From assembly GCA_951406725.2 (NCBI GenBank), contig OX597836.1, positions 30,938,001 to 31,002,000 of the forward strand: a DNA stretch of 64,000 bases, in the 5' to 3' direction. Positions 2,894 through 6,226 of the stretch are shown here, one piece after another. A model generated the notes under the pieces. That model ran no database searches. It was not told the origin of the DNA and worked only from the letters and a program-made list of their open reading frames with translations. Numbering within the stretch: the stretch's first letter is position 1; each line of letters starts with the position of its first letter. The position numbers and the translations under genes are program-made. The DNA is from Octopus vulgaris. Its lineage: Eukaryota.

Positions 2894-2988
2894 TATAAAT
2901 GAGGGTGAAAAATTGATATTAATTTAATAATACCATTAATTTAACACCAAGTGGCTTAGCACAAAAAACTAGGGAGAAGATACAAATT

Positions 2989-3484
2989 TATACATAAATT
3001 ATTAGAGAGTTACCACTATGTGGATAGCTCCAGTGCTAAAAATAGCTCCGATAGTAAAGCCACAGAAAGGATGTTTCCAATTACAAATAACATTACATTT
3101 AACGGAAGGAAAGTGAAACATAACAAATAAATAGATTGACCCTGAACAAATTGTTTCATTACTAATGTAATATGTAATTTTACTTACATAGACATCTATA
3201 AATCATCAGCAGAGGTTTGTCTTAAATACAATTTATCAGACCTACACGAGCGTCAAATACACGTGTGGTTTAACCAATTGCATTTTTAAGTAAAATTACA
3301 TATTACATTAGTAATGAAACAATTTGTTCAGGGTCAATCTATTTATTCGTTATGTTTCACTTTCCTTCCGTTAAATGTAATGTTATTTCTAATTGGAAAC
3401 ATCCTTTCTGTGGCTATACTATCTGAGCTATTTTTAGCACTAGAGCTATCCACATAGTGGTAACTCTCTAATAATTTATGTATA
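2989..3484. repeat. Long inverted repeat (198-bp arms, 100-bp spacer) between (TA)n tracts
   Basis: 2989-3186 is the reverse complement of 3287-3484 with only a few mismatches. It ends in a TA/TG microsatellite. Confidence 0.95.
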
Positions 3485-3686
3485 TATATATATATATATA
3501 AATATATGTGTCTGTATATATGTGTGTGAGTGTGTGTAAATATGTACATGTGTGTGTGTGCTTATATGTACTTGTATATATTTATATGTGTGCGTATATC
3601 TATGTATGTGTGCGTGTGTATGTATATATGGAAATAAAGATATATGTGTATATATATGTTTGCATGTGTGCATGTAAATATGTACA

Positions 3687-3727
<41 letters not shown>

Positions 3728-3728
<1 letters not shown>

Positions 3729-4039
3729 ATTAAAATCAAAATAAGCAACAAGGATATCCAGAGGTAATGCAGTATGATCGTTTCATGCAACTCCATTTAA
3801 TTGAACAATGCAATCATTACATCAATTTAAAATGTAGAGCAATCTTCAGCTGCACAAAGACAATAGAATTTAGTTAAATTAGAACAGATGGACACATTAG
3901 TATAATTATACCTAAAATCTCCAAGAAGTTAAGGAGATAGACAAAGAACATGTTGTACTTACAACAGCATAGCCATCTGTTCTAATTTAACTAAATTCTA
4001 TTGTCTTTGTGCAGCTGAAGATTGCTCTACATTTTAAAT
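3728..4039. mobile_element. Penelope-like terminal fragment with a partial inverted duplication (67-bp arms 3825-3891/3973-4039)
   Basis: Exact inverted arms; carries a hammerhead motif; abuts a TA/TG microsatellite; the same family recurs at 51917-52040. Confidence 0.6.
3768..3854 (-). ncRNA. Type I hammerhead motif with a long stem II (one stem III mismatch)
   Basis: Minus strand TGCAG CTGAAGA TTGC...(long irregular hairpin)...GCAT GAAAC GATC ATA CTGCA. The related copy near 51988 reads GAAACGATTGTACTGCA, so the consensus is GAAACGATCGTA CTGCA. Confidence 0.7.
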
Positions 4040-4158
4040 GTGGTTCCAAGTTCAGTCCCAGTGCTTTGCACCTTCTGCAATTGTCTTCTATTATAGCCTC
4101 GAGCTGACCAAAACCTTGTGAGTGGATTTGGTAGACAGAAACTGAAAGAAGCCAATTG

Positions 4159-4205
<47 letters not shown>

Positions 4206-4356
4206 GGGCGTGTGTGATTGTGTATAGAATATATTAATAAAAGGAATTCCAACCTTGTCTGATTTTCACGTTTTATTTACTATCTTATAATGATATAAGA
4301 TAATATAATATAATAAAATAAAATAAAATAATAGAATGTTAAATGTTCATTCTGAT

Positions 4357-4401
4357 TGAACTAGTACTTTCATGCATTAAATTCTGCAATCTTCAGGTTC
4401 A
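4357..4401 (-). ncRNA. Minimal type I hammerhead ribozyme motif with a fully canonical core
   Basis: Minus strand reads TGAAC CTGAAGA T TGCA gaatttaa TGCA T GAAA GTAC T A GTTCA: stem I TGAAC/GTTCA, core CUGAAGA, stem II TGCA/TGCA, GAAA, palindromic stem III AGTACT, predicted cleavage after CUA. Confidence 0.8.
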
Positions 4402-5083
4402 TGAAGTAGTGGTGACAGTCATGCTTCACAATTTATATATATATATATATATATATACATATGTATGTATATGGGTGTATATATATATATATGTATGCAT
4501 GTATGTATGTATGTATTGTTTACTGATACTTGATATATCTGTGTATCAGGGAAAGCAAACATGTGCATGTGTGTGTATGTGTGCACTTGAAGGATGAAAA
4601 AAAAAATTCAAGACCCATTAGTATTGAATAACAGCAAAACACATATTTAAGTATATGGACACACACACATGCGCACGTGCCTAGATAAGCACACCCATTT
4701 TTTTTTTTCATTCTGCTTTCATACCCACAACTGAATCATGTACCATTTCCTGAGCTTGTGGAAGAGAGAGAGAGAGAGAGAGAGAAAGTGTGTGAAGGAG
4801 AGAGAGAGAAACAGAAAAAGAGAAAGTGGTGGTGGTGGTGATAGAGGTCTTGTACTGTAAATGAAGCTGTCAATAAAGTATGGAATTCTCTCAGAGTGGT
4901 TTTTTTTTTCAGTGTCATATATAGAATAAGTGTTTCATATAAAAAGAAAACATGGTATTTTCCAAATGTCTACAAGTTTGAGTTGTTGCTTATAAGATTC
5001 ATATTTTTGAATTCTTTTTTATTCTTAGCAATCTCATATTTTTATCGAGATGTTAACACATGTCAATATTTTTCAACTACACA

Positions 5084-5375: not shown

Positions 5376-6226
5376 GATGGATTAATAGATATTTTTATAG
5401 GGATGTAATTATATTTCAATATTTACATCTTTACACTATGTTTTGATCAGTTCAATCTCAAATTGTGATCATTTCACTTATTTTTCTATGTCTGCATAGT
5501 TGTTTGTTCCTTCTCGATCCCCACCTGGCTCATAGGGCCGGTTTCCCGGTTTCCTTGGCGTATAGGTTCCTCACCTGGATGGGACACCGGTTCATGGCAG
5601 GTGAGCTGCAAGATGCAGGAGGAAAGAGTGAGCGGTTCAGTCCCACTGCGTGGTACCTTGGACAAGTGTCTTCTGCTGTAGCCTCGGGCTGACCAAAACC
5701 TTATGAGTGGATTTGGTAGACGAAAACTGAAAGAAGCCCATCATAGATATGAATATATATATATATATATATATATATAGATGTACGTGTGTGTATGTTT
5801 GTGTGTCTGTGTTTGTCCCACTAACATTGCTTGACAACCAATGCTGGTATGTTTACGTCCTTGTAACTTAGTGGTTTGGCAAAAGAGACTGATAGAATAA
5901 GTACTAGGCTTACAAAGAACACGTTCTGGGGGTCGATTTGCTCGACTAAAGGCAGTGCTCCAGCATGGCCATAGTCAAATGACTGAAACAAGTAAAAGAG
6001 TAGAAGAGAGTACAATTTATAAGCCCGAACTTGATCACCAATTAGTTTTGGTGTATTAATTACAGAGTATATAAGGAAAACCATACAGAATGAATATTCG
6101 TTATCAGTGATTAATTTAAATTGTTGGTAATGCATTTTTTTATTTTTGTTTTTATACATGTATGTGTGTATTTTAAATATGTTATAAAATTCTTTAACAG
6201 TGTGTTTTTCTCTAATTTCTTTGCAG

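Follow-up and report, generated by a model that had tools for sequence, protein, structure and literature searches.

A minimal hammerhead motif in a short, solo and probably inert end repeat of a Neptune-type Penelope-like element of Octopus vulgaris

On the minus strand of the window (the whole stretch of 64,000 nucleotides of Octopus vulgaris DNA that was analysed), a 45-nt motif with the layout of a minimal type I hammerhead lies in an island flanked by (TA)n runs (Table 1). The preliminary description had reported a hammerhead with a 5-bp stem I, a 4-bp stem II opened by a U-U pair and a self-complementary AGUACU, and all of these parts were found on the minus strand; the cut that it predicted between 4362 and 4361 agrees with the layout of the core. 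Positions C3 U4 G5 A6 N7 G8 A9, G12 A13 A14, A15.1-U16.1 and H17 are all intact in the window copy. A strict descriptor matched once in the window and in none of 60 order-3 Markov imitations of it, and a 40-mer of the motif (4396-4357) has 312 exact genomic copies compared to none for its reversed control. A chance motif was rejected on these counts, and the hammerhead identity, together with the conservation of the motif in the further copies whose search had been proposed, was confirmed. The island had been described as about 230 bp within (TA)n; the (TA)n on both sides is real (4165-4204 and from 4434), and the family match runs from 4434 to about 4205.

Table 1. Coordinates of the motif, its parts, the surrounding repeats and the overlapping frames of related elements
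Feature	Coordinates	Strand	Basis or remark
Minimal type I hammerhead motif	4357..4401	minus	core/stem descriptor; 312 exact genomic copies of 4396-4357
Stem I, 5 bp	4401-4397 with 4361-4357	minus	
Core C3-A9 (CUGAAGA)	4396-4390	minus	
U10.1 facing U11.1	4389 and 4372	minus	
Stem II, 4 bp, capped by an 8-nt loop		minus	
G12-A14 (GAAA with A15.1)	4371-4368	minus	
Self-complementary AGUACU, 6-nt palindrome A15.1-U16.1, predicted to form stem III between the two ribozymes of a dimer	4363..4368	minus	duplex -4.8 kcal/mol
A17	4362	minus	predicted cut between 4362 and 4361, after CUA
Competing 5-bp hairpin made by a rare base at 4404	4390..4406	minus	pairing of core bases U4-A9 predicted
Solo end repeat (pseudo-LTR part) of a Neptune-type Penelope-like element, older U4 subfamily	4205..4434	minus	97% identity with the 3' end of copies that carry RT/EN
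(TA)20 run, 3' side of the element, likely insertion target	4165..4204		
(TA)n run, 5' side of the element	4434..4496		
Family B hammerhead: long stem II, U-U, 8-nt palindrome broken at 3775	3767..3855	minus	separate repeat
ORF1/RT overlaps with slippery heptamer	L095:3840-3930; L141:1294-1372; L143:586-643; L144:1744-1783; L149:1715-1757; L152:2094-2169; L221:1199-1265		

The motif had also been credited with a 'canonical core' and 'every conserved core nucleotide', which we could not uphold. The G10.1-C11.1 pair and an extra nucleotide after A9 are described as conserved in metazoan Penelope hammerheads (PMC4209133), and both are missing from the window copy: the pair is replaced by U-U (4389/4372), and no nucleotide lies between A9 and 10.1. 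Stem III consists of the palindrome only, without a loop. An Rfam search over 3730-4432 yielded no hammerhead match at E<=10, a scan of the whole window yielded only microsatellite-driven miRNA matches among the matches listed, and the folding energy of the 45-mer was no better than that of its shuffles (z -0.37). A canonical monomer-active hammerhead was rejected, given the U-U at 10.1-11.1, the loopless stem III and the Rfam result.

A search of the genome (2.8 Gb) with 4205-4432 produced 1326 candidates, and the 40 that were scored were full matches at 95-100%. The 30 loci that we fetched share a fixed 3' end, followed in nearly all of them by a microsatellite, mostly (TA)n, and have a variable 5' end. 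Longer copies (L031-L033) run on from the island into a reverse transcriptase (RT) frame and a C-terminal endonuclease (EN), so a free-standing island was rejected. Searching the genome with the protein gave 129 scored matches, dozens of them with a 775-aa open frame; in the sibling copy L095 this frame matched RVT_1 (Pfam, E 2e-6, just under the curated cut-off) and GIY-YIG (E 3e-5, above it), and at E<=1e-30 it has 673 relatives, with bivalve proteins among those that are named. L095 is built of an inverted truncated copy and then head-to-tail 4271-bp units with a hammerhead in each end repeat, sense to the ORF, and tandem units or inverted 5' copies also occur in L097-L100. The ORF listing of the window itself contains no RT/EN frame of the element, and tblastn with the family proteins found nothing in the window, in the preceding 5 kb or in 30 loci of a second hammerhead-bearing repeat (family B). 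The translation of L095 has a DKG motif and a CX4CxxC linker before the endonuclease; a CX2-5CxxC linker and DKG are given for Neptune and Nematis elements, where they are linked to (TA)n targeting (Craig et al. 2021, PMC8557442). The octopus element resembles those elements further in its order of RT and C-terminal GIY-YIG, its partial tandems, inverted 5' copies, optional tail and (TA)n targets. Measured against that description, the linker, the DKG motif and the (TA)n fit a Neptune-type element. Judged by its sequence, the island is an end repeat of this Penelope-like element, inserted in (TA)n.

Upstream of the RT frame, ORF1 starts 245 nt after C3 and encodes 430 aa in L095, with no Pfam match. 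In all seven elements checked, the overlap between ORF1 and the RT frame is in -1 and holds a slippery heptamer that is in frame (U UUU UUN in six of them and A AAA AAC in one), which likely reflects a programmed -1 frameshift. In the copy L066, an extra A upstream accompanies a fused 1199-aa frame. This arrangement sets the octopus element apart from the Neptune and Nematis elements of PMC8557442, although the legend of Fig. 1 there allows a frameshifted ORF1, the clade not being given in the part of the text available. Our literature search on slippery frameshifting in Penelope-like elements found no paper.

Several other repeats surround the island. Family B has 1855 genome candidates; its hammerhead has U-U in 30 of 30 fetched loci, and its 8-nt palindrome is intact in 20 of the 30 and broken in the window copy. 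No similarity was found between family B and the Penelope-like element, and no RT match was found in family B with 120 relatives plus ORF1 at E<=0.01. The preliminary description had noted the same U-U in this motif (3768-3854); the mismatch is indeed present, but the motif belongs to a different repeat family. A heterodimer of the 4357-4401 and 3768-3854 motifs was rejected; the two could not pair because their palindromes differ. The family B repeat of the window (3724-4040) includes a perfect 67-nt inverted copy (3825-3891 / 3973-4039), and the family shares more than 1.2 kb of AT-rich upstream sequence. Further away, a 207-nt inverted repeat with 96% complementarity occupies 2980-3493. Within it, at 3214-3140, lies a third hammerhead-like sequence, a loose match whose long stem II has U at either end. 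A different dispersed repeat at 4050-4164 abuts the (TA)20 and has a second copy at 5635-5806 (80%). We take it to be, probably, a SINE-like end that uses the same microsatellite.

The preliminary description rated the window copy the 'best candidate for an active ribozyme'; an active copy would cut a host transcript running through the locus. The intact C3-A9, G12-A14, A15.1, U16.1 and A17 favor such activity, as do the probabilities of stem I (0.87) and stem II (0.97) in the isolated 45-mer. However, when two 45-mers were cofolded, the minimum was a double-hammerhead dimer (-17.0 compared to 2 x -5.4, or -10.8, kcal/mol), which makes a dimer requirement likely and agrees with the earlier expectation that dimerisation would be needed. 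No partner copy of the element was found in the window or the preceding 5 kb, the only element match being 4434-4200, and the neighbouring family B motif, with its different palindrome, could not serve as one. The window stub is also truncated downstream of the promoter-like words of the family, which are therefore missing. In addition, the base at 4404 would hide the core in a competing hairpin. This base occurs in 6 of 113 motif instances in the fetched loci (two being the window locus and one an inversion junction); apart from the window locus, the fetched family loci that have it are L028, L030 and L112. It lowered the predicted hammerhead fold 8-, 88- and 24-fold relative to a sibling in three context lengths, and with natural flanks the fold probability was 0.0008-0.013 for the window compared to 0.05-0.1 for the sibling. 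Single metazoan Penelope hammerheads are reported to be inactive and dimers weak (PMC4209133). With no partner and the 4404 hairpin, the rating as best candidate is unsupported, and we consider cutting at this locus highly improbable. The window copy is likely inert, and the family motif would likely cut weakly and only as a dimer.

If the island were a non-autonomous element in its own right, retrozyme or SINE-like, with 230 nt as the unit of its spread, the nearly identical ends of many copies would be accounted for. We give this proposal very little credence, given that the island aligns collinearly, at 97% identity, with the end of copies that carry RT, that its 5' ends lie anywhere between about 30 nt and more than 1 kb upstream, and that no tandem island array was found in the window or among the matches listed genome-wide, while retrozymes are defined as tandem repeats (10.64898/2026.07.22.740005). 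A non-LTR retrozyme in particular was rejected, since the copy is solo and the tandem units of the family are 4271 bp long and coding.

The family falls into two subfamilies that differ at position 4 of the core. A looser pattern for the U4 form, to which the window copy belongs, gave 691 matches, and in the first 100 of these the recurring differences were in loop II, with sporadic changes in the stems. The C4 form, in which U4C is added to U-U, has 1121 exact copies, and a pattern with positions 4, 10.1, 11.1 and one loop base free gave 1535 matches, with U-U in all of the first 100. Median divergence outside the 40-mer was 1.95% for C4 compared to 5.4% for U4 (20 + 20 first-listed copies, exact-match sampling on one contig). 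Same-strand spacings of about 4.27 kb, counted by eye among the first 100 listed, numbered 11 for C4 and none for U4, in a count where exact matching penalises the older U4 group. It is the younger C4 subfamily that has open RT frames and tandems, and C4 is likely the derived state, because U4 is found in 12 of the 12 clade motifs compared. Contigs of four further sequencing runs were compared on the island: three differed only in loop II and position 4, with C at position 4 in 19, 12 and 17% of depth (a share of depth does not give copy number, and the list missed the known 4404 difference), and no contig of the fourth aligned to the island. A loose pattern meant to find other U4C hammerheads in the genome had 3724 matches, compared to 3690 for its control. 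U10.1-U11.1 is described as a natural mismatch that is tolerated better than any other, and U4C as cutting far less well in vitro but still sufficing for viroid infectivity (Perreault et al. 2011, PMC3088659). The U4C core change in the youngest wave is predicted to weaken cutting.

The RT-alignment scans gave 86 loci (80 metagenome and 6 genome-collection), and the descriptor gave 27 hits in 25 of them. Eleven of the 20 closer relatives carry a regular motif, two an irregular one (L145 and L154) and seven none, four of the seven having <=200 nt of 3' sequence. At 10.1-11.1 the 11 regular motifs have U-U in six, G-C in four and A-U in one; the 12 clade motifs that include the window family thus have U-U in seven, G-C in four and A-U in one, and none of the 12 has an extra nucleotide after A9. 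A 6-nt palindrome is present in all 11 relatives, and the palindromes of the 12 clade motifs comprise seven different sequences. Inner stem I pairs are kept in 35 of 36 cases and stem II pairs in 22 of 24 across the 12 motifs, a level that none of 20000 partner permutations reached; the permutation test is partly circular because the descriptor that collected the hits asked for stems, and a further scan that asked only for core and palindrome recovered 10 of the 11 motifs. These results support the suggestion, made in the preliminary description, of a shared U-U structural subtype. In contrast, 14 of the 15 distant loci with a hit have the extra nucleotide (G-C in 10, G-U in three, A-U in one), and none has U-U. 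In a quick version of the RT tree with unnamed relatives (L146 and L152 were left out as too short), the close relatives form one clade (SH-aLRT 99, 19 rows) in which U-U and G-C are mixed, and the U-U-bearing RT relatives are at about 38-54% identity.

Some additional observations were made. Flanks of loci also hold other hammerhead families, with U-U, A-C or the standard form. A core without stem II follows a related RT at L154:1862-1893, with a 3-nt linker between A9 and G12, a 6-bp stem I and a 6-nt palindrome; the other irregular motif (L145:1928) has an irregular 5' core and a 10-nt palindrome. U3-A8 covariation in the core was seen at L225:2161, and C at position 4 recurs in a distant element (L175:2571). 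The Penelope-like RT contigs L221-L226 are filed in bacterial genome records, labels that are likely misassigned animal host DNA, as noted for Penelope-like elements in PMC8557442.

We examined how stubs such as the window copy might arise in a sample of 40 copies, made up of the 20 that come first in the contig 1 listing of each subfamily (five U4 places were skipped because they or their inverted partner had already been sampled). The 3' ends fall into a short class (seven copies) and a long class (31 copies); in the genome search with 4205-4432, inverted partners end at query position 204 compared to 228. Fourteen of the 40 begin 36-47 nt upstream of C3. This start hotspot has a CAGTC word; a TATA-like word precedes it by 31 nt, and CCAAT words occur still farther upstream. 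Taken together, TATA-like, CCAAT and CAGTC words are promoter-like. A 7-bp hairpin at the same place as the CAGTC hotspot could also stop copying. Among minus-strand genome matches (forward counts were inflated by overlaps and were not used), (TA)3-joined 5' ends numbered 125 at the hotspot compared to seven within 30 nt upstream of the bases next after the cut site, so most templates were likely uncut. Of 13 distinct junction loci, three have their first base precisely at the cut site, and TA microhomology makes one of the three ambiguous (p 0.0075; the uniform model behind this value takes no account of microhomology), suggesting that some RNA may be cut. From the junctions and the promoter words, we infer a transcription start about 45 nt before C3, and 4205..4434 is likely the cDNA of the first 230 nt or so of the element transcript. 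Transcription of such elements has been reported to start in the upstream repeat (PMC6765202). Assembled contigs of four runs guessed to be RNA cover the young element, and a single contig of 4303 letters spans its unit, in a comparison that has no silent-stretch control and does not show RNA ends.

In the mechanism that we propose, a promoter inside the upstream repeat would start the RNA about 45 nt before C3, and with that start a tandem transcript would carry two hammerheads 4.27 kb apart. The two would pair via their palindromes and cut weakly after CUA, perhaps helped by the protein of the element. On RNA that is still uncut, reverse transcription would be primed where AT-rich sites follow C3 of the first repeat by 155-200 nt, and the cDNA would run back through the uncut ribozyme to the 5' end of the RNA, leaving stubs without promoter or partner. 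We think it very probable that the motif is a minimal hammerhead in a Neptune-type Penelope-like end repeat, and that the locus is a short, solo, likely inert (TA)n copy for which this mechanism may account. The Anolis Poseidon element PAc likewise has a hammerhead in a Penelope end repeat, is primed internally at two sites giving a tail and uses uncut RNA as its main template (PMC11167929), a shared pattern that fits the stub as cDNA. The Anolis element belongs to the Poseidon clade and its ribozyme overlaps the ORF start, whereas ORF1 here lies 245 nt after C3; the PAc ribozyme needs protein, and was dispensable for insertion in vitro (PMC11167929).

As for what the hammerhead does for the element, the Neptune-type clade may keep a deliberately weak one (U10.1-U11.1, no extra nucleotide), of which a further-weakened U4C lineage swept to more than 1100 young copies. 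We offer this tentatively and regard it as rather doubtful; if it is true, the need of the element for an uncut RNA template would favour weak cutting. Alternatively, the motif could be a vestige that no longer cuts, with U-U and then U4C as steps of a decay that is without cost to an element transposing from uncut RNA, a possibility that we likewise consider unlikely but worth weighing. The youngest and most amplified subfamily adds U4C to U-U (1121 compared to 312 exact copies, 1.95% compared to 5.4%), and the excess of start-site over cut-site junctions (125 to 7) and the absence of an effect of hammerhead mutants on insertion in vitro (PMC11167929) point the same way. Decay fits poorly with the retention of U-U, and of stems that covary, in relatives whose RT is about 38-54% identical, and with recurring differences in U4 copies that sit in loop II while stem changes are sporadic. 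U10.1-U11.1 being the best-tolerated mismatch and U4C sufficing for viroid infectivity (PMC3088659) also speak against a vestige, as do the three of 13 junctions at the cut site.

Our literature searches found no paper on a U-U hammerhead clade or a U4C sweep; Lunse et al. 2017, reportedly a survey of Penelope-linked hammerhead variants, may cover U-U. The family resembles the minimal hammerheads (min-HHR) of metazoan Penelope elements (Cervera and De la Pena 2014, PMC4209133) in its type I layout, short stem I, palindromic stem III remnant and end-repeat location, and in its mostly solo copies and close inverted pairs, and departs from their consensus in the missing extra nucleotide after A9 and in U-U for G10.1-C11.1. 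In Fig. S3 of that paper the extra nucleotide is already absent from a shrimp (Marsupenaeus) row, which combines a 6-nt palindrome with A-U, and a D. willistoni row with an ambiguous layout may have U on both sides; we found no octopus entry in the available part of the supplement. The natural core variants U10.1-U11.1 and U4C of PMC3088659 are compatible with some activity, but they are rare single cases from microbes and a viroid, whereas here U-U recurs across a retroelement clade and U-U occurs together with U4C in more than 1100 young copies. The octopus repeat annotation (PMC13282606) lists young Penelope families and, in its available part, does not mention ribozymes.

By itself the locus is of little weight, as one stub among many. 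The dimer-type minimal Penelope hammerhead is a known kind, and the U-U subtype with its young U4C wave is a modest variant of it. Hits without a 10.1-11.1 pair were rejected in PMC3088659 as a filter; descriptors that demand this pair reject the U-U subtype, and the hammerheads of this clade may therefore be undercounted. The function of Penelope hammerheads is described as unclear in PMC8557442, which raises the idea of ribozymes merely parasitizing the element. The octopus family informs this question of purpose, with subfamilies one core base apart and junctions pointing to uncut templates. If the clade does keep a deliberately weak hammerhead, the U4 and C4 subfamilies would be a natural matched pair on whether Penelope ribozymes help or hinder transposition.
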